The notes under the pieces: generated by a model
Databases searched by the model: none
What the model was told of the DNA's origin: nothing
What the model saw: the letters and a program-made list of their open reading frames with translations, nothing else
Assembly (NCBI GenBank): GCA_963725665.1
Contig: CAVRZA010000001.1
Coordinates: forward strand, 416,001 to 480,000
Length of the DNA: 64,000 nt
Direction of reading: 5' to 3'
Origin: an uncultured Actinomycetes bacterium
Lineage (GTDB): Bacteria; Actinomycetota; Thermoleophilia; UBA2241
Part shown: one piece after another, positions 803 to 64,000 of the stretch
Position numbering within the stretch: the first letter of the stretch is position 1
How the letters are laid out: each line of letters begins with the position of its first letter
Made by a program: the position numbers and the translations under genes

Positions 803-809
803 GCTGGTG

Positions 810-2389: not shown

Positions 2390-2395
2390 TATAAT
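2390..2395 (+). promoter_or_regulatory. Sigma-70 -10 box for the ior operon, probably near-leaderless
   Basis: TATAAT 9 nt before the GTG at 2405; no Shine-Dalgarno. Confidence 0.6.
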
Positions 2396-2404
2396 GGACG
2401 TTCC

Positions 2405-4803: not shown

Positions 4804-4825
4804 GAGCCAGGAGGAGGTCCCCCAG

Positions 4826-46825: not shown

Positions 46826-47005
46826 ATTCGGTGCGCGGCAGCTCAGTGATCCGCGAGCCCTCTCCAAGCGGCTCGAAGGCATACGGCCGAGGCCGGGGGC
46901 GCTGGATGCTTCCCACACGCCCTCGGCCTCGGCAGCCTCTCAGTGGTCGCGCCTCTCAGGCAGCGGACAAGACGCATGTCCGCGTGGCCCGTGGTGCGAC
47001 GCTTG

Positions 47006-47731: not shown

Positions 47732-47935
47732 CTTGACCAACTCCTTGGGTCGGTGCTTGGTCGAGCCGGCGATTGCGATAATGAACGTACTGCCATTTGG
47801 GAGGAAGACCCCTAATTTTCTCGGTGATGTCTGACCATGCCCCGTCTGGCGCATGGCGAACCCCAGGGCCCGTTTGGGGCGACTGGTCAACGCTCAGAGC
47901 GAGGTGCGGCGCCGGCGACGCTGCGGGAGGTGCCG

Positions 47936-48025
47936 CACGGTTCCTGCAGATTTAGCAGCTTCTTGGCAACTCGTGGTATCCTTGCCGAGCCGCAGCAGAG
48001 GAAAACCCCTGCAAAACGGCACAAT
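47936..48025 (+). repeat. Diverged copy of the segment upstream of tRNA-Arg (52535-52623)
   Basis: Shared TTCCTGCAGATTT..GCAACTCGTGGTAT..GCCGCAGC..CCTGCAAA.CGGCACAATG. Confidence 0.8.
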
Positions 48026-48035
48026 GTGTCCTCTG

Positions 48036-48605
48036 GGCCGACCTCGACCTGGAGCGCGGCTTCGTCAACGTCTGCCGCACCGTCGAGGAGGACGAGGACG
48101 GCAGCCTCCTCGAGTACCCGCCGAAGAACGGCAAGGCGCGGGTGGTGCCGCTGCCCGCCGCGGCCTGCGAGGAGCTGCGCACCGCTCTCACGGCGCAGAA
48201 GGAGTACCGCCTGGCGCATGGCGGCTCTTGGAACAGGCGGGGAGGGTCGTCCCCAAGAAGGACGGCACCCAGATTGCGCCCTCGACCCTGAAGAGCCGGT
48301 GGTGGAACTGGGTGGCGCGGCAGAAGATCGATCCCCACCTGCCGATGCACGGGCTGCGCGACTCGCTCGGCACTTGGGTCTACGAGGAGTACGGCGTCAA
48401 GCAGGCGCAGGAGTGGCTCGGCCACTCCGACCCGGCGACCACGCTGCGCCACTACGTGCGCCTCACCACCGCCGCGCGGGCGAAGGCGGTCGCCGGGCTC
48501 GACGAGGTCACGCGGGCCGCGCTCGAGCGCGCCGAGTAGAGCGTCCGCGAGGACGCCCGGCCCGTCCTCGACAACGTCGTGTCGCTCGCAAGCCGGAGGC
48601 GCTGA
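48036..48605 (+). pseudogene. Tyrosine integrase C-terminal remnant, family A copy 1
   Basis: DLDLERGFV...PPKNGKARVVPL (frameshift) ...HGLRDS...LGHSDPATTLRHY; internal TAG ending at 48539. Confidence 0.85.
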
Positions 48606-48674
48606 CCAAGCCGAGCGGCGGCTCGGGTCACGCTAGTGCCCATTCGTGCGACAGTCTGCGACGAGCCACGCTCG

Positions 48675-49598
48675 CTAGGCGGCCTTCGGGAAGTCGCGCC
48701 GTACCACCTCCTCGAGACTCGTCGGGTGGACGCTCGGGTAGCTCCGCGCCGTCTCGCTGTCGTCGAAGGCCATGTCCGTCGTGTCCATGACGACGGCGGC
48801 CTTGGCCTGGCGGGCCATCGTCGAGCTGAAGGGCCGCATGATTACCGACATGGCCCGCAGCATCGGCAGCGGTATGTGCCGCTCGCGGCCTGAGGCGCCC
48901 GTTAGTTCCTCGAAGCGGTGCACGAGCTGGTTGACGCTCAGATCGTCCGGACCGCCGACGTCGATCGCCTGGCCACGGAGCCCGTGATCGACCAGGGCCA
49001 GTTCGATGAAGGCCGCGACATCGCGCGCCGAGACGAAGTTGATGGGATTGTCACCGCGCCCGAAGATGCGCGTCTTGTGGTCCTGGAGCAGCGGCGCCGC
49101 GACAAGCGCGGCCCAGACCTCCATCGACGGCGTGGGGCGGATGATGGTCCATGGCAGGATCGAAGACGTCAGGACCTGCTCGACCCGGTACTTGATCCGT
49201 CCCAGCTCGAGGGGGCTGTCCGGGGCGGCGCCGTGCAGCGAGACCAGGACGAAATGACTGCTGCCGGCGTTCTCCGCCGCGCGGATCAGATTGATGTTGC
49301 CCTGCAGGTCGGCGCTGCGTAGATCGCCGCCGTGTGGCCGGCCAAAGGCCGAGAAGGCCGAGACGACGGCGTCGCAGCCTTCGACCGCTGTCTCGAGGAC
49401 GTTCTGGTCCCGCACATCGCCCGGCACGACCTCGATCATCTCATTCTCCACGCTCCTGGCTCGCTCCGCGTCGCGGGCCAGGATCCGCACCTCGAAACCG
49501 TGCTCAGTCAGTCGGCCGACCAGATGGCCGCCGAGCGTGCCGGTGCCACCCGCGACGGCCACCAGACGAGGTTGATGCTCCTGCTGTTGCGTGCTCAT
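48675..49598 (-). CDS. NAD(P)-binding NmrA/atypical SDR family protein
   Basis: VAGGTGTLG, GDVRD, TIIRP, FVSARDVA, GGPD. Confidence 0.88.
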   Translation of the reverse strand: MSTQQQEHQPRLVAVAGGTGTLGGHLVGRLTEHGFEVRILARDAERARSVENEMIEVVPGDVRDQNVLETAVEGCDAVVSAFSAFGRPHGGDLRSADLQGNINLIRAAENAGSSHFVLVSLHGAAPDSPLELGRIKYRVEQVLTSSILPWTIIRPTPSMEVWAALVAAPLLQDHKTRIFGRGDNPINFVSARDVAAFIELALVDHGLRGQAIDVGGPDDLSVNQLVHRFEELTGASGRERHIPLPMLRAMSVIMRPFSSTMARQAKAAVVMDTTDMAFDDSETARSYPSVHPTSLEEVVRRDFPKAA

Positions 49599-50011
49599 GC
49601 GACTCGCCTCCCGCTCGCCAGGTCGGTGACTGCCTGCTCGATGCCGGCGCCACTCTCATCCACGGGCTCCATGTAGAGGCGCATCCAGCGGACGACGTCG
49701 TCGCGCTGGCCCAGGATGATGACGCCGCGCATCACCCATGGGCTGCCGTCGCGGCCCGTGCCACGCCACTCCCACTCCGTCCAGACCTCGTCCCCGTATG
49801 CTGCCCAGCTCTTCAGCTCGGCCTTGAGATCGGGCACGCTGCCGAGGATCTGCGTCCAGTTCTTGCGCACCTGCTCGCTCCCCCGGAACGAGCGGTCAGG
49901 GTGTGCGGGCTGGTCACTGTCGTAGTCGGGGTCGAAACATGCCGTGAGCGCGTCGAGATCGTGGTCATTGATGGCTTGCTGCATGCTCTGCACTATGCGT
50001 GGGGGGTTCAT
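49595..50011 (-). CDS. SnoaL/NTF2-like protein
   Basis: AINDHDLDA, DQPAHPDRSFRG, RLYMEPV. Confidence 0.85.
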   Translation of the reverse strand: MNPPRIVQSMQQAINDHDLDALTACFDPDYDSDQPAHPDRSFRGSEQVRKNWTQILGSVPDLKAELKSWAAYGDEVWTEWEWRGTGRDGSPWVMRGVIILGQRDDVVRWMRLYMEPVDESGAGIEQAVTDLASGRRVA

Positions 50012-50183
50012 CACCACATCACCGACTCTCGCAGGAGCCACGGCCCAACGGCGCTGACCCTGCCGAGACCGCTGCTCGCTTCCGTTTCTCCGATGTCGGC
50101 AGTGTTCCCGAGTTCGTCGGGAAGAACGCACCGCCGCCGCCCTGCTCGCGTCGTGAGCAACCCTCCCTCAGCGCGTCAGATAC

Positions 50184-50212
50184 TTGACAGTATCATTGAT
50201 ATCATCAATCAT
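50184..50212. promoter_or_regulatory. -35 TTGACA overlapping region with palindrome ATTGAT-ATC-ATCAAT (probable MarR operator)
   Basis: AT-rich patch; palindrome at 50195-50209 just before the marR ATG at 50220. Confidence 0.7.
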
Positions 50213-50219
50213 ATCCGCC

Positions 50220-50720
50220 ATGGACCACCCGCCGATCTCCGCGCACGACGAAGGGCTCTTCGAGCATGATGTCGGAGTCAGCTACCTGCACCTGCTGCGC
50301 GAGGTGCTGCTCACGTACCGGCTTCTCATGCGGGGGGCGACGGCCGAGTTCGGGGTCTCGGGCGCCCAGTTCGAGGTCCTGCGGCAGCTCGCCCTGGCAG
50401 GCGGTCGCTCCATGACCTCGGCGTTGGCGCGCGACCTGGCCGTCGACCCGGCCGCCGTGACGCGGCTCGTCGCCGGCCTGGAGCGCCTCGAGCTGGTCTC
50501 GCGCGAGGACGATGTGCGGGACGGGCGCCGGCGGCCGGTGCTGCTCACGCCCGCCGGCCGCGCCATGATGCTCGACTTTCACGCGCGCATGCACGCCCGC
50601 GAGGCCGCGCTGGCCGAGTCTATCGACCAGGCGTCGATCGACGGCGCCATGCGTGTCCTCCAGACCATCAGAAGCGTCTTCGACCCCAGCGCGCTGCGCC
50701 GGCCGAGCCAGTCCAAGTGA
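50220..50720 (+). CDS. MarR family regulator
   Basis: QFEVL, LARDLAVDPAAVTRLVAGLE, DGRRRPVLLTPAG. Confidence 0.92.
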   Translation: MDHPPISAHDEGLFEHDVGVSYLHLLREVLLTYRLLMRGATAEFGVSGAQFEVLRQLALAGGRSMTSALARDLAVDPAAVTRLVAGLERLELVSREDDVRDGRRRPVLLTPAGRAMMLDFHARMHAREAALAESIDQASIDGAMRVLQTIRSVFDPSALRRPSQSK

Positions 50721-50730
50721 GGAGACTCTC

Positions 50731-50994
50731 GTGAATGCGAACCCTGGACGCCTGGACGCCTCGAAACCGCGGCGCCGTCACAGCCGGACCACGACGCCTT
50801 TCGTCGCCCTGGATCGATCGCTCTGCAAGGCGTGCTGGTGTTGTGTAGCGGCCTGCCCCGAGGCCGTCCTCGGCAAGCTGGAGTTCGGCTGGCACAAGCA
50901 CGCCGTGGTCGACTCCGGCGAGCTTTGCACCGGATGTGGCAAGTGCCTGAAGGCATGCACGTCCGGAGCGCTCAGCGGCCGCAGCGTCGCGTAG
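50731..50994 (+). CDS. 2x[4Fe-4S] ferredoxin-like protein
   Basis: CKACWCCVAACP and CTGCGKCLKAC; RBS GAGGAG. Confidence 0.85.
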   Translation: MNANPGRLDASKPRRRHSRTTTPFVALDRSLCKACWCCVAACPEAVLGKLEFGWHKHAVVDSGELCTGCGKCLKACTSGALSGRSVA

Positions 50995-51113
50995 TCGATG
51001 GGTCACTTGGGCGGGGACCTTCACATGGACGCGCCAGAGAAACAGACGTCGAGCGAGGTCCTGCCTTGGGCTCTGATCGGCGTCTATTTCGCGGCCAGTC
51101 TGGCCGACAAGAT

Positions 51114-51432
51114 CTACCCGAACGCCGCCTGCGGCGTGACCTTCGTCGTCGCCGCGAGGGCGCCAGCCGTTTCTTCGAACGGAGTGCCGGGGTCGGGCCA
51201 GTGCAGCTGGTAGAGGTCGATGTAGTCCGTGCCAAGGTTGCGCAGGCTCGACTCCACGCCCTCCCTCAGCCAGGACGCGCTCGAGTCCCTGACGAGGGTG
51301 TCTCCCTCCATGCGCAGCCCGCCCTTGGTCGCCACGATCACCTCATCGCGCCGGACCCGTTCCCACAGCGCCTCGCCCAGCAAACGCTCGGACACGCCGA
51401 AGCCGTAGCCCTGTGCCGTGTCGTTGGCGAAG
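51114..51432 (-). pseudogene. Aldo/keto reductase internal fragment
   Basis: DTAQGYGFGVSE, IVATKGG, SLRNLGTDYIDLYQLHWPD; both ends missing. Confidence 0.8.
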
Positions 51433-51451
51433 ATGTGTGGGAGTGTCACAG

Positions 51452-51779
51452 AGCACCCTCGACCATGAAGAGCCAGTGGTGGAACTGGGTCGCCCGCCAG
51501 AGGATCGACCCGCATCTGCTCATCCACGGCCGGCGCGACTCGTTCGGTACCTGGGTCTGCGAGACCTACGGCGTCAAGCAGGCGCAGGAGCGGCTCGGCC
51601 ACTCCGACCCGGCGACCACGCTGCGCCACTACGTGCGCCTGACCACCGCCGCAAGGGCGAAGGCGGTCGCGGGGCTCGACGAGGTGACGCGGGCCGCGCT
51701 CGAGGCTGCCCAGGCGCAGTGCATGGAGGACGAGACGCCGCCGAACAATGTTGTCGAGTTGGCCAGCCGACGCCGCTGA
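51452..51779 (+). pseudogene. Tyrosine integrase C-terminal remnant, family A copy 2
   Basis: APSTMKSQWWNWVARQRIDPHL...LGHSDPATTLRHYVRL, closely similar to 48276-48605. Confidence 0.85.
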
Positions 51780-51839
51780 AGCTGTCAGGTGGCGGCGACC
51801 TCCAGGGACGTGGTGCGCTTCAGCCGCGACTGTGAGCGC

Positions 51840-52211
51840 TCAGCTCACCGCTTGCTTCACGAGCGCGGTGATCTTCGCCTCCTCGGCGGCGGTCAACTTC
51901 TTCACCGCGAAGGCGACTGGCCACATTGCGCCTTCGTCGAGGTTCGCCTCGTGCTGGAAGCCAAACGTCGCGTACCTCGTCTTGAATTTCTGTGCGCTTT
52001 GGAAGAAGCACACGACCTTGCCGTCCTTGGCATACGCGGGCATCCCGTACCAGAGTCTTGGCGAGAGAACTGGTCCGTTGGCTTTGATGATCGCATGGAG
52101 CCGCTCGGCTATGGCGCGATCAGGTTCCGGCATCGCGGCGATGTTTGCGAGCACCTCGGCCTCGCCGTCGGCCTTCTTCGTTGCCTTGTTCGCAGCTTTC
52201 TTCTCAGCCAT
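51840..52211 (-). CDS. DUF1801/YdhG-like protein
   Basis: [29 protein letters not shown]. Confidence 0.85.
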
Positions 52212-52309
52212 AGTGCCTTCCCTCCTATCTGCGGAGCTGTCAGTGAGGAATCAACGCGGTCGGTTCAACGAACAGCTTGTACCCGGCGCAGCGGGCCGAG
52301 AACATACAT

Positions 52310-52510
52310 ACCCGCCTGCGTGGTGTGGCCGATGGAGAAGATCGCCCGCGTCGTCGTCCGCGCCCGCGGCCTGCAGGTCCACGCAGCCGGCGTGCTCGCC
52401 GGCTTCTCCGGCCTCAGGGTCGGGGAGGTCGCGGGCCTGCGCTGGTCCGACCTCGACTTCGACCAGGGTTTCGTGCATGTGCACTTCACCATCGAGGAGG
52501 ACGAGGACAA
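52310..52510 (+). pseudogene. Tyrosine integrase internal remnant (box I), family A copy 3
   Basis: SGLRVGEVAGLRWSDLDFDQGFVHVHFTIEEDED, homologous to the start of copy 1. Confidence 0.8.
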
Positions 52511-52623
52511 GACGCCGGGAAGGGTTCCACCGTCGCGTTTCCTGCAGATTTGGCAACTTATTAGCAACTCGTGGTATTCTGGTCCGGCCGCAGCGGGACA
52601 AAGTACCTGCAAATCGGCACAAT

Positions 52624-52699
52624 GCCCTCGTAGCTCAGTGGATAGAGCACAGGTTTCCTAAACCTGGTGTCGTAGGTTCGATTCCTACCGGGGGCACCA
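52624..52699 (+). tRNA. tRNA-Arg (anticodon CCT)
   Basis: GCCCTCG acceptor stem, TAGCTCAGTGGATAGAGC D-arm, CAGGT-TTCCTAA-ACCTG anticodon arm, GGTTCGATTCC T-arm, encoded CCA. Confidence 0.97.
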
Positions 52700-52946
52700 G
52701 TTTTCCCCTGCATATGGCGATTTCGCCTTCCTGCTCGAGGCCTCATTCTTGGCCGAATCGGCAAGATTGCCGACATTTTGCCGACGAGACGCACGGCCAC
52801 AGCAGGCTACTGCAGGGCACGGGGCAGTATTGAAGGGCGCCGCGACGGAGTGAGAGCTCGTCTGGTTCACTACGGACATGGGTCGACTGAAGCGTGCGCC
52901 CGTCAAGGCGGCGCAACTTTGAGAGGGTCGTAGCCGTTCGCGGAGC

Positions 52947-53789
52947 CTACGAGGCCCGATCCTCCCGGACTCGCGCGCGCTGTACCTGCCGCGACCGCTC
53001 GTGAGCCCCCTGCCCCCGTCGCAGCAGGATGGCGGCCGGCACGACGGCGATGAGCACCCCCAGCGCCACGAGCTGGGCCTCGCGCAGCCCGAGGAAGAGG
53101 ATGACGTTGACGCGCTCGAAGGAGATGAAGAAGCGCCCCAGGGAGTAGAGCCCCAGATAGAGCAGGAAGGCCATGCCGTCGGTCTTCAGCCGCGGCATGG
53201 CCCAGAGCAGGATGGCGATCACAACCAGCAACCAGAGCTGCTCGTAGACCGGCGTCGGCTGCGTGGGGACACCGAGCAGGTTCGCCGGCAGCAGCGCATG
53301 CGGGTTCTTATAGACGAACCCCCAAGGGAGCTTCGTGGCGTAGCCCCAGGTGTCGCCGTTGATGATGTTGGCGCACTTGCCGATCAGCTGCCCGACTGGG
53401 ATGGCCAGCGCCAAGGCATCGAGCACGCGCAGGAAGGGCAGCTTCTTCCAGCGGCAGTAGATGAAGACCGCTAGAACGCCGCCACTGATGACGCCGTAGA
53501 TGGCCAGGCCGATGAGCTGCAGCGTCCAGAGCTGCCCCGGGTGGTGCCAGTAGAAGCCCAAGTTGTCGAGGATGTGGAAGAGCCGCGCCCCGGCGATGCC
53601 AAGCGGGATGGCAAGGAGCAGCATCCCGTAGACGTGGTCGGGGTCGATGCCACGCCGCCGCAGCTGGCGCGCAAAGACGTAGGCGCCGACGAGCACGGCG
53701 ATGGCCATGATGACGCCGTACCAGCGCACGGCGAACGGCCCCAGGTGGAAGAGGATGGGGTCGATGTTGATCGTGATGGAGCCGGTCAC
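52947..53789 (-). CDS. lgt: Prolipoprotein diacylglyceryl transferase
   Basis: IDPILFHLGPFAVRWYG, GARLFHI, GQLIGKCANIINGD, PTPVYE, GRFFI. Confidence 0.9.
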   Translation of the reverse strand: MTGSITINIDPILFHLGPFAVRWYGVIMAIAVLVGAYVFARQLRRRGIDPDHVYGMLLLAIPLGIAGARLFHILDNLGFYWHHPGQLWTLQLIGLAIYGVISGGVLAVFIYCRWKKLPFLRVLDALALAIPVGQLIGKCANIINGDTWGYATKLPWGFVYKNPHALLPANLLGVPTQPTPVYEQLWLLVVIAILLWAMPRLKTDGMAFLLYLGLYSLGRFFISFERVNVILFLGLREAQLVALGVLIAVVPAAILLRRGQGAHERSRQVQRARVREDRAS

Positions 53790-53838
53790 CGGGCAGTCGC
53801 CTCGAGCACTTCTTCCCCCCGACAGGTTTGGCTATTCC

Positions 53839-53857
53839 GAAAATGGTTATCAGTTTC
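53839..53857. promoter_or_regulatory. Zur (Fur-family) box
   Basis: GAAAATGGTTATCAGTTTC, an imperfect palindrome between divergent lgt and znuA; a zur gene ends the operon. Confidence 0.75.
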
Positions 53858-54784
53858 AGCGTGGTTGCCAACCTGTCACGTCTACTCCATCGCCCTGTGC
53901 CCGGCGCGCTCGCCCTGTCGGCTCTCCTTGCGCTGCTTCTCTCCGCCTGCGGCAGCGGCACCTCGACAGCGAGCGGCGGCGGCAAGGTGAACGTCGTGGC
54001 CGCCGAGAACTTCTGGGGCAACATCGCCGCGCAGATCGGCGGCGGCCACGTCCAGGTGACCTCGATCATCTCCGATCCCAGCGCCGACCCCCACCTCTAT
54101 GCCTCCAACGCCGCCAACGCCGCCGCCGTGGCTCGTGCCCAACTCGTGATCGACAGCGGCGCCGGCTACGACACCTTCATGAACGATCTTCTGAGCGCCT
54201 CGGGCGCCCATCCCGCGGTCGTCTCGGCGCAAGCGGTTCTCAAGGTAAGCGGCGCCGACGCCAACCCCCATCTCTGGTACGACATCCCGCGGGTGCCCGC
54301 CGTCGCCGCCGCCATCGAGCACGCGCTGGCCCGTATCGACCCGGCCAACAAGGCCGCCTTCGAAGCCAACCTCGCCAAGTTCGATCGCTCGTTGGCCCCT
54401 GTGAAGGCGGTCATCGCAAAGATCAAGGGCAAGTACGGCGGCGCACCGGTCGCCTACACGGAACGCGTGCCCGGCTACCTGCTCGCCGACGCGGGGCTTA
54501 CGGTGGCCTCGCCGCCGGGCTTCGCCAGTGCCATCGAGAACGGCAACGAACCCGCCCCCGCCGACGTGCAGGCGATGAACACCCTGCTCAGCGGGCACAA
54601 GGTGCGTCTCCTTCTCTACAACGAACAGGCGGTGAGCGCGGTCACCCAGCGCGTCCGCTCGCTGGCGCAGCAGAACGGCATCCCCGTGGTCGGCGTCAGC
54701 GAGACCCTGCCGCCCTCCGATGCGAGCTACCAGGCGTGGCAGCTGCGCCAGGCGCAGGAGATCCTGCGCGCGCTGGGCGGCTAG
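53843..54784 (+). CDS. znuA: Zn/Mn ABC transporter substrate-binding lipoprotein
   Basis: Lipobox LLSAC, VVAAENFWG, DPHLY, NPHLWY. Confidence 0.9.
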   Translation: MVISFSVVANLSRLLHRPVPGALALSALLALLLSACGSGTSTASGGGKVNVVAAENFWGNIAAQIGGGHVQVTSIISDPSADPHLYASNAANAAAVARAQLVIDSGAGYDTFMNDLLSASGAHPAVVSAQAVLKVSGADANPHLWYDIPRVPAVAAAIEHALARIDPANKAAFEANLAKFDRSLAPVKAVIAKIKGKYGGAPVAYTERVPGYLLADAGLTVASPPGFASAIENGNEPAPADVQAMNTLLSGHKVRLLLYNEQAVSAVTQRVRSLAQQNGIPVVGVSETLPPSDASYQAWQLRQAQEILRALGG

Positions 54785-54788
54785 CGTC

Positions 54789-55637
54789 GTGGCGCGGGAC
54801 GGGAAGCTGTGCGGAGAACGGAGGTCCTTCTGCGCCTACGTGGCGCGACGTGGCCTTCGGCGCGCGCACACTCTGGCAGGGCCTCACGCTGGAGGTCCGC
54901 CGGGGCGAGTTCCTGGCCGTGCTGGGACCGAACGGCTCGGGCAAGACGACGCTCCTGCGCGTCCTTTTGGGGCTGCAGCCCCTGGCCGCCGGAACGGTCG
55001 AGATCGCCGGACAGCCTCCCCATCGCGGCGACCCCCGCGTCGGCTACGTGCCCCAGCAGCGCGCCTTCGACCGCGACCTCCCCGTGCGGGGGCGTGATCT
55101 CGTTCGCTTGGGCCTCGACGGACATCGCGCGGGCTGCCCCTTCGGCGCAGAAGCGTGCGAGCGCGCGTCGATGCGGCGATCTGGCTGCGGTCGGCGCGGC
55201 AGACTACGCCAACGCCCCCATCGGCCGGCTCTCGGGCGGCGAGCAGCAACGACTGCGCATCGCCCAGGCGCTGTTGGGAGATCCGCTGGCGCTGCTCTGC
55301 GACGAGCCGCTGCTCTCGCTCGACCTCGCTCACCAGCAGGCGATGACGGCGCTCCTCGACCAGCGGCGGCGCGCGCCGGTACGGCCATCGTCTTCGTGAC
55401 GCACGAGATCAACCCCATCCTGCCCTACGCCGATCGCGTGCTCTACCTCGTGGGCGGCCGCTGGGCGGTGGGCACGCCCGAGGAGGTCCTCACGAGCGCG
55501 CGCTTGAGCGCCCTCTACGGCGCCCCCGTCGAGGTCGTTCGCCTGGGGGACGCATCCTGGTGGCGGCGGCGGACGAGAGCGACTACACCGAGCCCGAGGG
55601 CCACACCCACCACCTCGAGCAAGGGCGCATCACGTGA
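54789..55637 (+). CDS. znuC: Zn/Mn ABC transporter ATPase (several frameshifts)
   Basis: GPNGSGKT, GYVPQ, LSGGEQQR, LLCDEP and VTH spread over different frames; His-rich end. Confidence 0.8.
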
Positions 55638-56509
55638 GCCTGGGCTCCTACCTGCAGCTGCCGTTCGCACAGCACGCCCTGCTCGCGGGCGCCCTGGTGG
55701 CGGTCACCTGCGGCCTCATCGGACCCTTCGTCATCACGCGCCGCATGGCCTTCGCCGTGCACGGCGCCAGCGAGCTCGCCTTCACCGGCGCCGCGGCGGG
55801 GCTCCTGGTCGCCGGCGACGCCGTCGCCGGCGCGCTCTGCGGCGCCGCCGTGGTCGCCGTCCTCATCGGCGTCCTCGGCGTGCGCGAGCACGAGCGCGAC
55901 TCGGCCATCGGGGTGGTGCTCGCCGCCGGCCTGGGCCTCGGCGTTTTGCTCTTAAGCTACTACCACGGCTTCGCCACGGCGGCCACCAACATCCTCTTCG
56001 GCGACATCTTCGGCGTCAGCAATCACCAGCTCGTCCTGCTGCTGGCGATCGGCATCGCCGTGGTCGTCGTCATGGCGGTCATCTACCGGCCGCTGCTCTT
56101 CGCCTCGGTCGATCCCGAGGTGGCCGTGGCGCGCGGCGTGCCCGTGCGCCTGCTGGGGCTGGTGTTTCTCTTCGTCTTGGCCTTCACCGTCACCGAGGCG
56201 GCCCAGGTCGTCGGCACGCTGCTCGTCCTGAGCCTGGCCATCACCCCCGCCGCTTCAGCACAACGTTTGGCGACGAGCCCCTTCGCCGTGTTCGGCCTGT
56301 CGATCGGCTTCGCCTTGATCGCCGCCGACGGCGGCATTCTCGCCAGCCTGCAGAGCAGCACCGTCAAGCCGAGCGTCTTTGTGACCGGCATCAGCTTCGG
56401 TATCTACGTGCTCGCGCGCCTTCTCGGCCCCCGTCTCAGGGGACAGCGGCGGGTGGTACCATCGGCAGTGGAAGGAAGGGAGACTCATGGACAGCAAGCA
56501 ATCTCCTGA
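55634..56509 (+). CDS. znuB: Zn/Mn ABC transporter permease
   Basis: FAVHGASELAFTGA, ILFGDI, RPLLFASVDPEVA. Confidence 0.92.
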   Translation: MSLGSYLQLPFAQHALLAGALVAVTCGLIGPFVITRRMAFAVHGASELAFTGAAAGLLVAGDAVAGALCGAAVVAVLIGVLGVREHERDSAIGVVLAAGLGLGVLLLSYYHGFATAATNILFGDIFGVSNHQLVLLLAIGIAVVVVMAVIYRPLLFASVDPEVAVARGVPVRLLGLVFLFVLAFTVTEAAQVVGTLLVLSLAITPAASAQRLATSPFAVFGLSIGFALIAADGGILASLQSSTVKPSVFVTGISFGIYVLARLLGPRLRGQRRVVPSAVEGRETHGQQAIS

Positions 56510-56957
56510 TCAAAGCCGAGCAAGGACGACCCGACAGGGCGAGGCCGTGCTGCGCACCGCCCAGTCATCGGAGCTCTTCCGCAGCGCGCAGGACATCCAC
56601 GCCGAGCTGCGCGCCGCCGGCGAGTCGGTCGGGCTGACGACCGTGTATCGTCATCTCCAGTCGCTGGCGGATGACGGTGTCCTTGACACCCTGCGGACGG
56701 GCGAAGGCGAGCTCCTCTACCGCTGCTGCCGTATGGACGAGCATCACCACCATCTGGTCTGCGAGAGCTGCGGCCGAACGACCGAGATCGAGGGCGCCGA
56801 CATCGAGCGCTGGGTCGAGAAGGCAGCGGGCAAGCACGGCTACACGAGCACGAGTCACACCCTCGAGATCTTCGGCCTGTGCGCAGCCTGCCATGAGAAG
56901 GCAGTCGCAGAGGGAGCCTCTTTCCACGGTGTCGACTCTGGCAGGAACGCCAGGTAA
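56487..56957 (+). CDS. zur: Fur-family regulator, Zur-like
   Basis: FRSAQDIH, GLTTVYRHL, HHHHLVCESCG, HTLEIFGLCAAC. Confidence 0.9.
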   Translation: MDSKQSPDQSRARTTRQGEAVLRTAQSSELFRSAQDIHAELRAAGESVGLTTVYRHLQSLADDGVLDTLRTGEGELLYRCCRMDEHHHHLVCESCGRTTEIEGADIERWVEKAAGKHGYTSTSHTLEIFGLCAACHEKAVAEGASFHGVDSGRNAR

Positions 56958-57073
56958 CACGCTCGGGTCGGACGGCCATCGCTCGGACCGCCAGCTCGAA
57001 GAGTGCCGATCTGGAGAGTTTCGTGCTGGGCCGTGAAGTGCAGCGCCGCCTCGAGTGCCTGGACCGACCTCGG

Positions 57074-57345
57074 CTACGTCCCGGCGAACACCAGCCCCGC
57101 GATCAGCGCCGCCGCCTCCTCCTGCATCGCCGGGATGGCGTGCGAGTAGGTGTCGAGAGTGATGGAGACGGTGGCGTGGCCGAGGCGCTCGGAGACGACC
57201 TTGGGGTGTACGCCGGCCTGCAGGGCGAGGGTGGCGTGCGTGTGGCGCAGGTCGTGCAGTTGGATGCTCGGCGCCGCCTTCTTGACTGCCTGCCCGAAGA
57301 AACGACTCGACGACCTCGGGGTGCGGGGCCTGGCCGTCCTCGTGT
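57074..57345 (-). pseudogene. Tyrosine integrase 3' remnant, family B copy 1
   Basis: LHDLRHTHATLALQAGVHPKVVSERLGHATVSITLDTYSHAIPAMQEEAAALIAGLVFAGT*. Confidence 0.88.
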
Positions 57346-57447
57346 GTGAAAGATCACCTCCTTCTTCGACGGCAGCGCTGCAACGGCATCAGCGGGTCGA
57401 CGGCGGGGGAAGCTTGTCGTACGAGATGCGATCAGAGGAGGACAAGC

Positions 57448-57801
57448 ATGCCACTGCAGAAGAAGAGTTTCGCTTCGCCGGATGAGGTGCGGCCCATGGC
57501 CGACAAGGGTCGCGTCGAGATCCTGCGGGTCGGCGATGGCGTCGTTGGCAAGGCTACGTTCGAGCCCGGTTGGCGCTGGTCGCAGCACGTCAAGCCGATC
57601 GCCGGCACCGACAGCTGCCAAGCGGCCCATCTCGGCTATGTCCTCTCCGGGCACCAGAAGGTAGTCATGGACGATGGCAGCGAACTCGAGTTCGGCCCCG
57701 GCGACGTGGTCGCCATCCCTCCCGGCCACGACGGCTGGGTCCTCGGTGACGAGCCCTGCGTCCTGCTGGACTTCGCCGGCATGGAACACTACGCGAAGTA
57801 G
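57448..57801 (+). CDS. Cupin domain protein
   Basis: FEPGWRWS, SCQAAHLGYV, IPPGHDGWV; RBS AGGAGG. Confidence 0.9.
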   Translation: MPLQKKSFASPDEVRPMADKGRVEILRVGDGVVGKATFEPGWRWSQHVKPIAGTDSCQAAHLGYVLSGHQKVVMDDGSELEFGPGDVVAIPPGHDGWVLGDEPCVLLDFAGMEHYAK

Positions 57802-57827
57802 GGGATGGCGGAGACCAGCGCGTGAGC

Positions 57828-57912
57828 GAGGCGCTCTGAGACGACCTTGGGATGCACTCCCGCCTGCAGGGCGAGAGTGGGGTTCGTGTGGCGCAGGTCG
57901 TGCAGGGCGGGG
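57828..57912 (-). pseudogene. Tyrosine integrase remnant, family B copy 2
   Basis: PALHDLRHTNPTLALQAGVHPKVVSERL. Confidence 0.82.
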
Positions 57913-58154
57913 CGCACCTCCGCTAGCCGCTACCTCGCCGGCGTCGCGTCGGTAGCGTGTCGGCCGGATAGGGAGAGCTACTGCACGTCGCGCCACTCTT
58001 CAGTTTCCGACACGATTTGAAGACCTGTGACCGCGACCGACACACCATCACGGCTGGGGCAACGCCGAGAGAGGATTTCCTTAGTCCGGTTCTGGCAATC
58101 AATCGTGGAAGCGCCGCGGTCCAGACGGCGAGACGATAACGAAGGAGGCACGCC

Positions 58155-59564
58155 ATGGCGACCCCGGCTCGCTCGGCGCTCGATCCCCTCTCGGAGTTCG
58201 AGGCCGGCTTTCATGGCACCCTTGTGCCCCCCGGCCAGAACGGCTACGAGGAGGCGCGCGCGGTATGGAACGGCATGATCGACAAGCGCCCGCGCGCGGT
58301 GGCACAGTGCAGCGACGTCGAAGACGTCGTACGTGCAGTCGATTTCGCCCGCCGCTACGGCTGGCCCCTCGCCGTACGCGGCGGCGGTCACAACGTCGCC
58401 GGACTGGCGACCTGTGAGGGCGGGCTCGTGCTCGATCTCTCGGCGATGAACGGCGTCGAGGTCGACTCCCAGACCAGGCGGGCGCGCGTCCAAGGCGGCG
58501 CGATCTGGCGGGACGTCGATGCGGCGACGCAACCGCACGGGCTCGCCGCATCGGCAGGGCTGGTGTCGCAGACCGGTGTGGCCGGCCTCACCCTCGGCGG
58601 AGGCATCGGCTGGCTGCGCCGCAAGTACGGCCTGAGCTGCGACAACCTCCTCTCCGCCGAACTCGTGACCGCCGCCGGCGAGCGCGTGCACGCGAGCGAG
58701 CGTGAGAACCCCGAGCTGCTGTGGGCTCTGCGCGGCGGCGGCGGCAACTTCGGCGTCGTGACAACCTTCGAGTTCGCGCTGCACCCGGTGGGCCCCGAGA
58801 TCGCCTACGCGCTGGTCTTCTTTGACGGCGCGCAGACGGTGCAGGGCCTGCGCGGCTTTCGCGAGCTGGCGCGGTCGCTGCCTGACGAGATCGCGCCAGT
58901 CCTGTTCACGGGAGCCGTGCCAGAGGCCGAGGGCATCCCGGCCGAGATCGTGGGCAAGCCCATGCTGGCCGCCGCCGCCGTGTACGTCGGCCCGCCCGAG
59001 GAGGGCGAGGAGCGGCTACGCTCGCTGCGTGACCTCGCCACGCCGCTGGCGGACCTAAGCGGCCGCATGCCGTACGTCGACATCCAGCAGTTCCTGGACG
59101 AGGACTACCCGCGTGGCCGCCGCTACTACTGGAAGTCGGCGACCATCGGCGAGTTGAGCGACGAGGTCATCGACATCGTCGCCGACTTCGCGGCGCGCCA
59201 GCCCTCGCCCATCAGCACCATCGACGTGTGGCTGATGGGTGGCGCCCTGCGCCGCGAGCCGCCGGGCGGAGCCGCCTACAGCGGGCGCGAGGCGGGCTTC
59301 CAGGTGAATCCGGAGGCCGACTGGGACGACCCAGCGATGGACGACGCCAACGTCGGCTGGGCGCGGGGCATCATCGAGGCGTTGAAGCCGCACACGGTCG
59401 GCACGTACCTGAACTTCCCCGGCATGCTCGAGGAAGGCGAGCAGCAGCTGCGCCTGAGCTTCGGGCCGCACTACGAGCGCCTCACCCAGGTCAAGCGGCG
59501 CTGGGACCCGGACAACCTGTTCCGACTGAACCACAACGTCCCGCCAGCGACCGCGGCACCCTGA
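58155..59564 (+). CDS. FAD-binding oxidoreductase (BBE-like)
   Basis: RGGGH (covalent FAD His), GLTLGGGIG, GGGGNFGVV, KRRWDPDNLF. Confidence 0.93.
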   Translation: MATPARSALDPLSEFEAGFHGTLVPPGQNGYEEARAVWNGMIDKRPRAVAQCSDVEDVVRAVDFARRYGWPLAVRGGGHNVAGLATCEGGLVLDLSAMNGVEVDSQTRRARVQGGAIWRDVDAATQPHGLAASAGLVSQTGVAGLTLGGGIGWLRRKYGLSCDNLLSAELVTAAGERVHASERENPELLWALRGGGGNFGVVTTFEFALHPVGPEIAYALVFFDGAQTVQGLRGFRELARSLPDEIAPVLFTGAVPEAEGIPAEIVGKPMLAAAAVYVGPPEEGEERLRSLRDLATPLADLSGRMPYVDIQQFLDEDYPRGRRYYWKSATIGELSDEVIDIVADFAARQPSPISTIDVWLMGGALRREPPGGAAYSGREAGFQVNPEADWDDPAMDDANVGWARGIIEALKPHTVGTYLNFPGMLEEGEQQLRLSFGPHYERLTQVKRRWDPDNLFRLNHNVPPATAAP

Positions 59565-59788
59565 CGCGCGAGAAGCCGAGCGGTCATGATCCGCGCATGG
59601 GCGCGGGGCCATTCCTCGATCCCTGAGGAGGATCGACCGAGGCCGAGGGGACGAGTCGCTGGGATCTTCGCGCCCACCGTGCTGCGTCGTCGATAGCTGG
59701 AGCTGCGCTGGAAGCGATGGAGGCGGCCCTCCGCGGCGAGTGCGGGTTCTGGTGGGGAGAAGCTGTTGGACGGGCTCACGAGCGCGTC

Positions 59789-59888
59789 TCAGCCCTGAGC
59801 GAACACCAGCCCCGCGATCAGCGCCGTTGCCTCCTCCTGCAGAGCGGGGATGGCGTGGCTGTATGTGTCGAGGATGCTCTGCACGGTC
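59789..59888 (-). pseudogene. Tyrosine integrase 3' remnant, family B copy 3
   Basis: TVQSILDTYSHAIPALQEEATALIAGLVFAQG*. Confidence 0.82.
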
Positions 59889-59942
59889 CGGCGGGAAGAA
59901 ACGAGGAGTTGGCCAAGGTCCATGCTTGGCCAGGAGGGCGAC

Positions 59943-60860
59943 ATGACCCGCTACGAGATCATCGAGGCGCCCAGCGTCCTCGGCCTCTTTCCCAAGGGCG
60001 TTGAACACCTCCCCCAGGCCTTGCTCGATGCCGGGCTCGTGGACCGGCTGGCCGCGGCCCGCGGACCTCTGGTCACGCCGCCTGCCTACCACGGCGAGCG
60101 CGACGCCGAGAGCGGCTTGCTCAACGCGACGGCACTCGCCGACTACGCCCGCGCGCTGGCCGATGAGGTCGGTTCCGTGCTATCGAGGCGCGCGTTCCCG
60201 ATCGTGCTCGGCGGTGACTGCAGCATCCTGCTGGGATCGCTCCTGGCGCTGCGCCGGCGCGGACGCTACGGCCTGCTCTTCCTCGACGGCCACGCCGACT
60301 TTGCCCATCCCAGCGAGGAGCCGTCCGGCGAGGCTGCCTCCATGGACCTGGCGCTGGTCACCGGCCGCGGCCCGCGCGTCGTGGCAGATATCGACGGTTG
60401 CGGTCCGCTCGTGCGCGACGATGACGTCGCGCTCCTCGGCTACCGGGTCTTCACGGATGGCACCGATCGGCACCTCGGCACGCACGTGCGCGACACGGCC
60501 ATCCTCGTCGACGACCTCAACGACATCCGTCGTGACGGCTTGACTGCCGCCCTCGAAGCGTCTCTGGCGCGAGTCGCGCGCGACGACCTCAGCGGTTTCT
60601 TCGTGCACCTCGACGCGGACGTCCTCGACGATGCCGTCATGCCTGCCGTCGACTACCGCACCCCCGGCGGCTTGCAGTTCAGCGAGGTCGCGCGGATCGT
60701 GAGCGCGGCACTCACTACCGGCAAGGCCGTGGGTCTGGAGCTCACCATCTTCAATCCGGCTCTCGACCCGGACGGCTCGCTCGCACGCGAGCTCGTCGAT
60801 ATGCTCGTCGCCGGGTTGAGCGCAAGCGACGCGCACCAAGGGGGCGCGTTGGGTCGATGA
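59943..60860 (+). CDS. Arginase/ureohydrolase family protein
   Basis: GGDCS, DGHADF, HLDADVLD, ELTIFNP. Confidence 0.9.
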   Translation: MTRYEIIEAPSVLGLFPKGVEHLPQALLDAGLVDRLAAARGPLVTPPAYHGERDAESGLLNATALADYARALADEVGSVLSRRAFPIVLGGDCSILLGSLLALRRRGRYGLLFLDGHADFAHPSEEPSGEAASMDLALVTGRGPRVVADIDGCGPLVRDDDVALLGYRVFTDGTDRHLGTHVRDTAILVDDLNDIRRDGLTAALEASLARVARDDLSGFFVHLDADVLDDAVMPAVDYRTPGGLQFSEVARIVSAALTTGKAVGLELTIFNPALDPDGSLARELVDMLVAGLSASDAHQGGALGR

Positions 60861-60890
60861 ACTGACCTTGAGCGGCGCGGTCGGTACCTA

Positions 60891-60977
60891 CTAGTCCGCG
60901 AACACCAGCCCCGCGATCAGCGCGGCGGCCTCCTCCTGCATCGCCGGGATGGCGTGCGAGTAGGTGTCCAGGGTGAT
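60891..60977 (-). pseudogene. Tyrosine integrase 3' remnant, family B copy 4
   Basis: ITLDTYSHAIPAMQEEAAALIAGLVFAD*. Confidence 0.85.
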
Positions 60978-61003
60978 AGGACGCGAACCCGGTGCGTCGG
61001 GCA

Positions 61004-61859
61004 CTAGGGCGTAACGCTGGACCCTAGAGTTCCGGAGGAGTCCGAAACGGCGCGGCGTCCTCTCGGGCGTGTGCTAAACGTCTCGAGCACGAGGGCCAGG
61101 GCGATACCGCCGACGAGTCCGCCCAAGAGCCCCACAGCAGCAGCGGTCTTGGGGCGCGGTGCGTAGGGCCCAGCCGGCGCGGTCGCAGGCAGCACAATCG
61201 TGGTAGTCGCCCGTCGCCGCCTCCGCCGCCTTGGCAAGGTCCTGCAGCCGCGCCTCAAGAGCGAAGTAGTCGGGCGAGCGCCGCGACTGAGGCGAGGAGA
61301 ACGCCTTCAGCCTCTCCCTTATGACCTTCTGGGCGTTGGCGATTTGAGCAAGCTGCTGGTCTCTGCTCAACTCGACGATGGCCCGGCCATAGGCGTTGGC
61401 TACGTCGGCAGACTCTGCCGCACTGGGACTCGTCGCGGAGAGGTTGAGCTGATTGACGACCTGACCGTTGTAAATGCTTGTGGCACCGCCGCCGACCAGT
61501 TCGGCAGAGACCCGGTAGGGTAGGCGCGGAGTGCTGCCGAGGATGCGCTCTGCCCTTGCGACAACGGCGGGATTCGAAACGATGCCAGCGGCGCTCGTGT
61601 AGAGGGCGGGCGCCGGCGCAGCCTGGGGCGCGGGCTGCGACGCGGGAGTGATGAATAACGGGTTGCGGGGGACCATCGGGGGCTGGTAGATCATGACGAC
61701 GGTCGCCCGGTACATGGGCGTCTCTCGCAGCGCCAGACCGTAGGCGCCGAGAGTGGCAAGGGCCGCCACTCCAAGCACGGCCCACTTCCAGCGCCACAGC
61801 ACGCGTGGGAAGCCGCGGAAGCTCAACCCTTCTGGCCGGTCCCTGGTACCCTGCGCCAT
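61004..61859 (-). CDS. Wzz/polysaccharide co-polymerase-like protein (frameshift near 61200)
   Basis: VLWRWKW + TM, PMYRAT, AADVANAYGRA-like helix, then PATAPAGPYAPRP + second TM in another frame. Confidence 0.7.
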
Positions 61860-62166
61860 GTGCTTCTCCTGCGGAGGCTCTCGTAGCAGTGTACCTCATC
61901 GCGAATCCGTGGAGGCGGTGAAGGCTGCGCGACGTCTCCTTGTCAGGCGCGCTCTGGCCTGTGCAGGTTCACCCGGCCCGACGAGGAGCGGCCTCGCGGC
62001 GACGCCGGAGGGTCTTCACGCCACGGTCACCGCAACCGTGGCGGCGCCGGCTAGCGCACGGTACCAGCGCGTTGCCGGCCCACTCTCCAATCCCAAGTCT
62101 GGAGACCGCCGCTGTGGGGGACACCCCGGTCAGCGTCGCACCGCGTCGTCCTTGTGGGGGAACGGC

Positions 62167-63417
62167 CTACCTGGCCGCGAACACCAGCCCGGCGATCAGC
62201 GCTGCCGCCTCCTCCTGCATCGCCGGGATGGCGTGCGAGTAGGTGTCGAGCGTGATCGAGACGGTGGCGTGGCCGAGGCGTTCTGAGACGACCTTGGGAT
62301 GCACGCCGGCCTGCAGGGCCAGGGTCGCGTGCGTGTGGCGCAGGTCGTGCAGCCTGATCTGCGGCAGCATCGCCTTCTTGACGGCCTGACGCCAGTAGCG
62401 TGAGACGTCCTCGGGGTCGAGGGCCTCGCCGTTCTCGAGCGTGAAGACGAGGCCCGTCTCGACCCAGCCCTCCTCCCACTCGCTCTGCTCGTCGAGCTGG
62501 CGCTGAGCCTGGGCCTTCAGGACCTCGACGGTGGCCGGGTCGAGGGCGATGACGCGGCGGCCCTTGGCCGTCTTGGGCTCGCTCACGACGACCTCGCCCT
62601 TGATGGGGATGAGGGCGCGACGCACGGAGAGACGCGCGTTCTCGAGGTCGACGTCGCCCAGCGCAGGCCGAGGGCTTCGCCGCGCCTCATGCCGGTCATG
62701 GCGATCAGGTGCCAGAGGGCGTGGAGGCGGTCGTCCTTCACCGAGTCGAGGAACGCCTTCAGCTGCTCCTTGGTCCAGGTCTGCATCTCCTTCGTGCCGT
62801 CGCCGTTGCCGCGCGGCGGGTCGGCGGCATCGAGCGGGTTGCGTGCGATGTAGCCCCATCTGACCGCGTCCTTGCACGCCTTGTGCAGACAGGAGTGCAC
62901 GTGGTGGATGGTCATGGGGGAGAGGCCCTTCTTGCCGTCCTTCTTGCCGTTCTCGACGAGCTTGGCGTAGAGAGCGTTGACCTGCGATCCGGTGAGCTTG
63001 GCCAGCTTCATGGCGCCGATGTGCGGCACGATGTGGTAGTCGACGTGCTGCATGTAGGAGTTGTAGGTGGAAGGGCGGATGGTCGCCTTCACCGCCGGCA
63101 GCCACTCCTTGGTCAGGTACTCCTTCACGGTCATCTTGGTCGGCGGCGGTAGGTCTGCTGCTCGACGGCCACCAGGAGCTTGTTCATCGCCGCCTGGCAC
63201 TCCTTCTGCGTGGCGAAGCCGCCCTTGATCGCGCCGGCGCTCGCTCGATGCTCTCTGCGAGTTCGCCACCACATCTGGGGCACGACGTCTTCGGTCTTGC
63301 GCTCCACCCAGTAGCCGCTTCTTGCAGGCTCGGGCAGCGCTGGGCGTCGTGCATGCCGACGTCGACGATGTACTCCCAGCTGCCGGGGTCACCGCGTTTG
63401 CGGACGTGGCCTCTCAC
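62167..63417 (-). mobile_element. Tyrosine integrase, family B, near full length with several frameshifts
   Basis: MRGHVRKRG N-arm, MTVKEYL..W core, TGMRRGEALGL, PKT, HDLRHTHA, LGH, LDTYSH. Confidence 0.9.
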
Positions 63418-63740
63418 TGCTCGGCATCCTTCGCACTGGTGGGACTATGCGCTTGGCTGTCGTGACTCGGGCACTCGCCCGCCTTGCCTGGCACAGCCGG
63501 CCCCAGCAGTCCCATTTCGCGCGCGCGCTGCACCCAGCGGCGCAGCGTGGAGAGCGAGACGTACCGCTGCTCCTGCATGTAGGCGTAGGGGTTTGTGGGA
63601 TGTCGCAGCAGGCCCTCCCTGTAGAGAGCGGCGATGTCCTCGTAGAACGGGGGCTCGTACGCGCGTCGACCGCTCCGAGCGGGGCGCTTGGCAGGTGGCG
63701 CGGGCTCCGCGAGCAGCTGGGCTAGGCCGAGCAGGCGGGC
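63414..63740 (-). CDS. HTH protein coupled to the integrase (5' part frameshifted or uncertain)
   Basis: Manual translation FYEDIAALYREGLLRHPTNPYAYMQEQRYVSLSTLRRWVQRAREMGLLGPAVPGKAG...EQ*; stop overlaps the integrase GTG. Confidence 0.55.
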   Translation of the reverse strand, partial: ARLLGLAQLLAEPAPPAKRPARSGRRAYEPPFYEDIAALYREGLLRHPTNPYAYMQEQRYVSLSTLRRWVQRAREMGLLGPAVPGKAGECPSHDSQAHSPTSAKDAEQ

Positions 63741-64000
63741 TCGTCGAACCGACCTACGTCGGACACTCAGGATTCGAGTTCAGGAGATGAGGACGGAGGA
63801 CGCAATGGAACCGCGAGTTCTCAGTGGAGGGAGGGCGCACCCACCTCTCCCATCTCCACGTGCAACCACCCTGCAACCCACTAGTCCCCAGAGGCTGCCC
63901 GAGTCGACATGAGGTGTCCGGGCGGAGAGGCCTCCCCCGGCCCGCGGAGGGTATCTCCGTCACGCTGTGAATGGCCATGAGGGGCCTCCCCGGTGGCATG

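Follow-up and report, generated by a model that had tools for sequence, protein, structure and literature searches.

Why should the end of a single integrase gene recur again and again between otherwise unrelated metabolic genes? This question is raised by a 64,000-nt stretch of DNA (hereafter the window) from an uncultured Actinomycetes bacterium of the Thermoleophilia (lineage UBA2241), which corresponds to positions 416,001 to 480,000 of contig CAVRZA010000001.1 in assembly GCA_963725665.1 and has a G+C content of 68%. On its minus strand, the segment 57074-63417 holds one near-full tyrosine integrase gene (E) and four pieces of the same gene family (A to D). Since single cargo genes are separated by integrase ends in the window and the same pattern is found in related genomes, the locus suggests that the integrase gene's own end is the place where new genes recombine in. 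Our favoured explanation, which we hold to be about evenly balanced between true and false, is that small cargo modules are gained, lost and swapped through recombination in the final ~40-100 nt of the integrase gene.

The five integrase pieces lie on the minus strand where a preliminary description of the locus had placed them (Table 1). That description had also noted that the peptide SHAIPAxQEEAxALIAGLVFA is kept, with divergence setting in around the stop codon, and that each copy has its own synonymous changes. Both observations were borne out. SHAIPA(M/L)QEEA(A/T)ALIAGLVFA is encoded by A, C, D and E alike, and the similarity among these four runs to two codons before the stop and is gone beyond it. 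The repeats are 74-270 nt long at 85-95% identity, and the minimal core common to the terminal blocks lies at about 62177-62213 within E. Tail A, the 5' third of which is frameshifted, differs from E by 15 synonymous codons over the 90 compared, despite a stretch of 59 identical residues ahead of its two variable terminal codons. Tail D shows 5 synonymous and 2 non-synonymous codon differences from E, and tail C shows 7 of each kind. Given the 5-15% divergence and the identical peptide that A and E encode through different synonymous codons, the window copies are not recent duplicates; they are separate alleles that evolved under protein constraint. Repeats of this length and identity, together with the same architecture at 27 other loci, mean that the pattern exceeds chance.

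These other loci were collected in one scan of species-representative genomes with the C-terminal 163 residues of the integrase, in which 256 matched and 80 loci were kept, with flanks of up to 10 kb. Most of the surveyed loci are from metagenome-assembled genomes (MAGs) labelled Thermoleophilia or Actinomycetota, and because several come from single assemblies, the integrase gene is multi-copy. At the DNA level, no conserved element body is shared across the loci, and only the integrase gene of ~1.3 kb is common to them. The family has no relative above 39% identity among deposited phages and plasmids; the best phage matches are integrases of Bacillus and Paenibacillus phages (30-34%), and B. 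cereus plasmids reach 38.6%.

When the 80 loci and the window were searched by tblastn with an intact 418-residue integrase, 133 copies were recovered: 61 full-length, 62 truncated on the 5' side with the 3' end kept, and 10 without the 3' end, four of which are parts of frameshifted full copies. The truncation points are far from uniform. Among the 57 truncated copies that lie away from locus ends, 40 start in the last 82 of the 418 residues and 17 are long copies starting before residue 337. All 68 solo copies found by blastn are co-oriented with the integrase. Same-strand integrase 3' ends follow the integrase at 28 loci (27 besides the window). Where at least 2 kb of downstream sequence was present, 26 of 68 loci have one or more downstream tails, and 8 loci have an upstream tail. 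Aligned from their 3' ends, the 52 unique solo tails nest within one another: they are cut back on the 5' side to differing extents, and all finish at the stop codon. Their common denominator is ~36 nt ending at the stop, and the repeated block amounts to the last 12-30 codons of the gene. The shortest solo tails measure ~26-40 nt, which is short for RecA-type recombination. In one 138-nt solo tail (L003, 10767-10905), TAG replaces the codon of the catalytic tyrosine, and the rest of the tail is well conserved.

The spacing of these tails is that of genes. From one 3' end to the next, the median distance is 1126 bp (range 300-5862, n = 54), and the segments between successive ends hold one open reading frame (ORF) in 25 cases, two in 14 and none in 10. 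Most array ORFs run antisense to the integrase (52 of 70, so that 74% share one orientation), and in the cases read, cargo stop codons lie 27-50 nt from the tail end, as with the arginase-family gene of the window, which stops 27 nt from tail D. Ordinary families of metabolism, transport and regulation make up the array genes of the window and of the 14 other loci examined, and there is no recombinase among them. Examples are aldo-keto reductase, zinc-type dehydrogenases, another FAD/BBE oxidase, an amino-acid permease, SnoaL, GNAT and a two-component pair.

Comparison of closely related arrays places several exchanges of modules within the tails. Locus L009 equals L004, which lies on the same contig, plus one unit made of an aldo-keto reductase gene and a 105-nt tail; the integrase and a two-gene module are shared by the two loci at 99% identity, and the polymorphisms map the crossover inside the tail. 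At L017 and L063, the integrases are 75% identical and the proximal modules differ, and a 5.6-kb distal block with 96% identity starts inside a tail. Within one MAG, a module of ~800 bp (92% identical) is the first unit after the integrase at L033 and the second at L007, its similarity beginning ~38 nt before the left tail's end. Further modules occur in differing contexts at L007/L024, L027/L063 and L001/L024, and a DUF6518 module is found at six loci. In total, 4 of the 18 non-edge ends of blocks with at least 94% identity fall inside tails, versus 2.1% of the sequence that lies in tails. The earlier suggestion that the integrase 3' end serves as a recombination anchor is thus upheld by the shared orientation of all 68 solo copies, the preferential keeping of the 3' end (62 copies versus at most 10), the gene-sized spacing, the separate alleles, and the reordering of modules with breaks inside tails.

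Where do the arrays lie relative to the site at which the island enters the chromosome? A full tRNA-Arg(CCT), convergent with the integrase, is present 2-9 kb downstream of it in the window and at L003, L005, L017, L018, L022, L026, L029 and L038. Partial tRNA-Arg copies, extending from tRNA nt ~24-32 to the 3' end and including the adjoining arm, lie downstream of the arrays in many other loci, and in distant members of the family another convergent tRNA is found at a distance of 70-200 nt. We class the family as a canonical tRNA-Arg(CCT) integrase. Beyond the last tail, a tRNA-Arg attachment copy is present at 15 of the 28 loci that have downstream tails; at none of the 28 does a tRNA scar separate the integrase from a downstream tail. 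Therefore, the arrays lie within the island, flanked by the stop codon of the integrase and by the tRNA-side arm; the feature maps show the order attachment site, integrase, tail, tail, attachment site. Upstream of the integrase, L004, L009, L012, L013 and L036 carry Prim-Pol/PriCT, AAA_25, FtsK-gamma, Rep_O and methylase genes, and L011, L015, L025, L027 and L031 carry ordinary genes.

In the model that we favour, the segment is the cargo end of an island at tRNA-Arg(CCT), from a family of Thermoleophilia islands that may be akin to prophages or to the integrative and conjugative elements of actinomycetes (AICEs). The integrase gene stands at the island's far side, pointing towards the tRNA, and an expandable array of one- or two-gene modules occupies the space between its stop codon and the tRNA-side attachment arm; what bounds each module is a copy of the final 36-270 nt of a same-family integrase gene. 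The integrase 3' end would act as a second recombination site, inside the element and distinct from the tRNA site. Via this site, modules could be inserted beside the integrase tail, lost again and exchanged between related islands. We infer that the crossovers are site-specific and made by the family integrase, with a recombination core around GCGCTGATCGCGGGGCTGGTGTTCGC, and modules might be able to travel as small circles with one truncated tail. The tail would then be a recombination site within a reading frame, a placement that we take from the breakpoints only.

A number of observations weigh against this model. It leaves the origin of the first module with a truncated tail unexplained, and we found no tested case of a second site type in an integrase that already has a tRNA site. 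The homology breaks fall at query positions ~72-81 for L004/L009 but at ~97-106 for L017/L063 and L007/L033, and a cargo common to L007 and L019 has opposite orientations at the two loci. Across 38 intact integrases, the tail (0.35-0.44) does not show clearly suppressed synonymous change compared with the rest of the gene (0.26-0.57); there is no strong extra constraint on the DNA of the tail. We found no convincing dyad symmetry in the tails and no consistent hairpin in six 81-nt tail strands (DNA-fold z-scores -0.37, -0.65, -2.93, -3.38, +0.18 and -0.66), only E folding better than its shuffles. Neither decay nor tail length follows a gradient along the arrays (Spearman 0.008, p = 0.95); thus, a rule of 'newest next to integrase' is not shown. 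A derivation of the tail from the tRNA site was considered and rejected, as local alignment to 52560-52830 scored 16 versus a shuffle mean of 17.6 and a maximum of 26. Furthermore, modules do occur in differing orders across related arrays, as the preliminary description had anticipated, but none of the window's own four cargo genes was found in another array at close identity; for the cupin gene, the arginase-family gene and the Wzz-like ORF, the other arrays of the surveyed loci gave no match at all.

The state of integrase E is a further difficulty. Relative to four intact relatives, it carries five frame-breaking indels (+1, +1, +2, -1, -1). Because the neighbouring genes are intact, E is either a pseudogene or a badly polished multi-copy gene, and poor consensus at such a multi-copy gene may be the cause. 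A uniform assembly error was also considered and is unsupported, since six other genes of the window (~6 kb) are intact, namely glnA, lgt, znuA, znuB, the oxidase gene and the arginase-family gene. With its integrase broken as assembled, the window array is inert unless another copy of the family acts in trans.

Homologous recombination at a multi-copy gene is a serious rival, although we judge it unlikely. It holds that, with at least 10 integrase copies per genome, the 3' ends are simply portable homology, and that RecA-dependent crossover, gene conversion or synthesis-dependent copying moves the modules. Because the mapped breaks do not lie at one point, this explanation fits them equally well. 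It also accords with the lack of extra synonymous constraint, of a dyad and of a hairpin in the tail, with the many integrase copies per MAG, and with the indel between L004 and L009, which is flanked by high-identity repeats of 105 nt. However, anywhere in the 1.25-kb gene should then serve equally, and the near-universal keeping of the extreme 3' end (62 versus at most 10 copies) goes unexplained, as do the prevalence of tails below 100 nt, the origin of those of ~26-40 nt and the making of the first tail duplication.

The preliminary description had offered, as its own alternative, the serial insertion and decay of islands. In this explanation, which seems to us less probable again, islands integrate in tandem at tRNA-Arg, their bodies and the 5' parts of their integrases are deleted, and selected cargo and integrase stumps stay behind. 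Tandem integration at Arg-tRNA has been documented for AICEs (excerpts of PMC2440964), and with degraded remnants for the tycheposons of Prochlorococcus (excerpts of bioRxiv 10.1101/2020.12.28.424599). The family surveyed here has tandem islands as well: at L007, L011, L018, L022, L025 and L038, partial tRNA-Arg copies 6-10 kb apart bound units of integrase and tail array. One unit at L007 is only 6.5 kb long, its integrase beginning 76 nt after the partial tRNA. At L018, a partial tRNA stands 166 nt before a 5'-truncated integrase, and some of the long stumps, such as this one, probably derive from tandem islands, which would suit the 17 of 57 truncated copies that are long. Since the real attachment site is tRNA-Arg and no tRNA scar lies between integrase and tails at any of the 28 loci, serial insertion and decay is disfavoured as their source. 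It also sits badly with the strong bias of truncations (40 of 57) towards the gene's final 20%, with the regular gene-sized spacing, and with the most complete integrase being usually farthest from the tRNA (tails downstream at 26 loci versus upstream at 8), which is the reverse of 'newest next to tRNA'. Nor do the solo tails show added decay: they retain the gene's codon-position pattern, and decay at codon positions 1 and 2 is 0.079 in solo tails versus 0.065 in intact genes (p = 0.32). Serial island insertion and decay accounts poorly for the short tails, the asymmetry, the gene-sized spacing and the absence of tRNA scars, for all of which recombination at the gene end accounts well.

We consider it very improbable that the tails are kept to serve the cargo as promoters or terminators on the antisense strand, and not as recombination sites. 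The antisense orientation of 52 of the 70 array ORFs and the closeness of cargo stop codons to tail ends (27-50 nt) would fit such a role, but in 56900-63600 there are no promoter-like and no terminator-like sites (0 of each), the minimal tails are, by eye, G+C-rich coding sequence without an AT-rich -10-like element, and the exchange of modules at tails would remain unexplained. Finally, a chimeric joining of strain variants at the repeated integrase end during assembly is hardly credible: the window looks error-prone in places (the five indels of E and two frameshifts in znuC), but its single-copy genes listed above are intact, tails of one array differ by 5-15% and so would not collapse in assembly, and the same architecture is found at the 27 other loci, in MAGs whose names (MFD, bog, palsa, binchicken) point to different projects and which presumably span short- and long-read assemblies.

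The cargo of the window had been listed as a cupin, a FAD oxidase, an arginase and a Wzz-like gene. Pfam supports the first three, the third as a member of the arginase family; the Wzz-like assignment is weak, falling below the Pfam cut-off and without any NCBIfam match, and this ORF is possibly a decaying gene. A homologue of the window oxidase with 44% identity sits between tails at L056. The zur-znuBCA-lgt block lies, as had been proposed, between the first tail and the tRNA, as established by Pfam and by tRNA-Arg(CCT) at 52624-52699. Within it, znuC (an ABC ATPase gene, 54780-55540) is read in two frames with two shifts, its neighbours znuA and znuB being intact, and is either a pseudogene or the site of a local assembly error. 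The lgt gene (52947-53789 in the window) is integrase-adjacent cargo also at L014 (10937-11733), L001 (8133-8894) and L002 (8791-9594), with 67-82% protein identity; the order at L014 is integrase, lgt, DUF6518 module, tail. As lgt travels as integrase-adjacent cargo at several loci, genomes with an island lgt may carry extra lgt copies. The small ORF just upstream of integrase E has no match in Pfam or NCBIfam, and a search of 47000-64000 against Rfam gave no RNA family besides the tRNA. A motif of ~40 nt from the end of the tRNA-side arm (window 52753-52792) recurs just upstream of the integrases of other loci at 85-92% identity; it might serve for arm-type binding, or as a regulatory site that the two ends of the circular form have in common.

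Table 1 Features of the segment, of the tRNA-Arg(CCT) junction and of its 5' side. Coordinates refer to the window unless a locus is named
Feature	Coordinates	Strand	Basis and remarks
Second integrase family, middle to C-terminus	48033-48600		
Second integrase family, C-terminal tail	51453-51776		89% identical to 48276-48527
Second integrase family, N-part	52322-52513		
tRNA-Arg(CCT) and conserved arm of about 90-100 nt, the island's chromosomal attachment junction	52624-52800 (tRNA 52624-52699)	+	ARAGORN, Rfam
Innermost cargo, between last tail and tRNA-side arm: lgt; znuA, znuC, znuB, Fur-family (Zur-like) regulator	52947-56957	lgt -; others +	Pfam
Tail A, last ~90 codons	57074-57350	-	270 nt 85.9% identical to E; PF00589 at 5e-10
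Module 3b, small cupin	57448-57801	+	Pfam Cupin_3/Cupin_2
Piece B, internal integrase fragment (residues ~358-389 of 418)	57820-57905	-	without terminal block; cut ~19 nt from cupin stop codon
Module 3a, FAD-linked (BBE-like) oxidase	58155-59564	+	FAD_binding_4 PF01565 and BBE PF08031; BagK/FevA1-like 246 bits, below cut-off
Tail C, last ~30 codons and stop	59789-59887	-	most diverged terminal copy
Module 2, arginase-family gene, convergent with tails	59943-60860	+	PF00491; TIGR01229 108 bits, below 227.6 cut-off
Tail D, last ~28 codons and stop	60887-60977	-	91.2% identity with E across 91 nt
Module 1 ORF, 'Wzz-like', weak assignment	61074-61859	-	PF02706, E = 2.9e-4, below Pfam cut-off; G+C at third codon positions (GC3) 0.77
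Terminal block of E (last ~22 codons and stop), the unit repeated downstream	62167-62238	-	blastn with a 161-nt query; 52 unique solo tails displayed on a common anchor
Integrase E, near full length	62167-63417	-	Pfam PF00589 and PF14659 (SAM-like N-terminal domain); Zn-ribbon-like CxxC...CxxC insert; read in three frames
Small ORF just upstream of integrase E	63414-63578	-	ORF list; possible excisionase-like helix-turn-helix, judged by eye
Displaced tRNA-Arg copy at L003	14940-14978		
Intact tRNA-Arg at L003	12428-12503		
~40-nt arm motif, copy at L038	9961-10000		
~40-nt arm motif, copy at L056	8659-8696		
~40-nt arm motif, copy at L041	14083-14121		

A second integrase family, also in pieces with cargo between them, is found on the 5' side of tRNA-Arg (47938-52624). 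The genes between its pieces are NmrA-like, SnoaL, MarR, ferredoxin, an aldo-keto reductase fragment and DUF1801. Immediately upstream of tRNA-Arg lies a stretch of 89 bp that is present in a second copy at 47938-48026, and the order of parts is swapped between the two sides: on the left, the copy is followed by a 67-bp overlap and the C-part of the integrase, and on the right, the N-part is followed by the overlap, the copy and the tRNA. This arrangement resembles the pair of ends left by a circle that recombined within the integrase gene. At L003, MerR and CCG/Fe-S genes separate the intact tRNA from a copy, 2.4 kb beyond it, of the pre-tRNA region and of tRNA-Arg nt 1-39 (100% identical). 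This displaced copy suggests that elements enter on the 5' side of the same tRNA-Arg. The 5' side of the tRNA in the window has also gained DNA, since glnA (44001-45116) lies 7.5 kb from tRNA-Arg there versus ~0.7 kb at L005 and L029.

If module exchange at the integrase end is real, abundant soil actinobacteria would gather small genes of metabolism and regulation within their mobile islands, and rearrange them there, by a route absent from the papers searched. It would be a concrete and testable case of cassette-like gene capture outside integrons and would account for rows of unrelated single genes in tRNA islands, and co-oriented integrase 3' ends at gene-sized spacing would be a signature by which other lineages could be screened for such arrays. 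As a recombination tool, too, a short portable site with its matching enzyme could be of use. In its strongest form, which we put forward tentatively and hold to be doubtful, the proposal is that of a second kind of bacterial gene-capture platform: the Thermoleophilia tRNA-island integrase would use the final ~12 codons of the gene that encodes it for docking, and single-gene cassettes carrying the truncated end as a mobile site would be inserted, excised and traded between the many integrase copies of a genome and between species. Such a platform would have evolved independently of integrons, with double-stranded, coding-derived sites, and would have the same outcome. If plain homologous recombination at a multi-copy gene were the answer instead, the arrays would still be a clear example of integrase remnants structuring cargo exchange.

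The full-text literature searched gave no description of arrays bounded by integrase 3' ends, and the nearest known systems share separate parts of the pattern. Akin to AICEs, the family has a tyrosine integrase (PF00589) with a convergent tRNA, and its relatives carry Prim-Pol/PriCT, AAA_25, FtsK-gamma and DNA methylase genes upstream; the window reaches only 583 nt upstream of integrase E and does not show the element body. AICEs rarely carry host-beneficial genes, according to excerpts of a review on them. Unlike in AICEs, kilobases of cargo lie here between the integrase stop and the tRNA-side arm, divided by copies of the integrase 3' end.

Site-specific accretion is known from ICESt1/ICESt3 and cis-mobilizable elements. 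Likewise, the island PAISt of Streptomyces turgidiscabies excises in modules, as stated in excerpts of PMC4057263. In common with these accretion islands, it is direct copies of a single gene's 3' end that mark off the modules here, a single tyrosine recombinase lies at the end of the island, and the repeats flank modules in one orientation (68 of 68 co-oriented; 52 unique tails with a common 3' end). In accretion islands, however, the repeated 3' end belongs to a chromosomal target gene (bacA, fda) and is the ordinary attachment site, whereas the repeat described here belongs to the integrase gene itself and is additional to the tRNA site. The scale also differs, PAISt modules being at least 100 kb versus ~1 kb here. 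In tycheposons, repeated integration at one tRNA pushes older elements inward and leaves fragmented integrases and partial tRNAs among the cargo, according to the excerpts cited above; their punctuation consists of partial tRNAs, in contrast to integrase 3' ends without tRNA scars inside the arrays.

Integrases with an attachment site in their own gene are a further point of comparison. Integrases of this kind, such as the archaeal SSV-type ('suicidal') integrases, are described as exclusive to archaea in excerpts of a review (PMC8371274). In Riemerella RAP44-like phages, the attachment site lies in the end of the integrase gene, and integration splits the 1317-bp gene into parts of 1293 bp and 43 bp (excerpts of PMC12169736). 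A recombination site within the integrase reading frame, as we propose here, would be shared with both. Their site, however, is a tRNA-matching chromosomal attachment site at which the gene is split on integration, whereas here the tail has no similarity to the tRNA region, the frame would be restored by the partner copy and the tRNA site is separate. A gene split into N- and C-parts at the element ends is not what the survey shows, with 61 full-length copies and at most 10 N-terminal fragments among 133.

In integrons, attC sites fold as imperfect hairpins, and the array starts at attI, upstream of the integrase, with a common promoter. The arrays described here lie instead at the integrase 3' end, downstream of its stop, with 52 of 70 ORFs convergent with the integrase, and their repeats are co-linear copies of coding sequence rather than imperfect palindromes, without a consistent single-strand fold. 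The family enzyme is not an integron integrase, since an intact member scores far below the cut-offs of the integron-integrase models TIGR02249 (38.8 bits, cut-off 265) and NF011946 (22.9 bits, cut-off 435). The earlier notion of an integron-like system without attC sites therefore does not extend to the enzyme, and no consistent attC-like hairpin accompanies it. It does stand for the outcome: as in integrons, one recombinase gene is found beside an array of modules, each ending in a repeat of variable length that resembles a recombination site, and with one ORF in 25 of 54 segments and one orientation for 74% of ORFs, the modules may also match the single-gene, commonly oriented cassettes of integrons.

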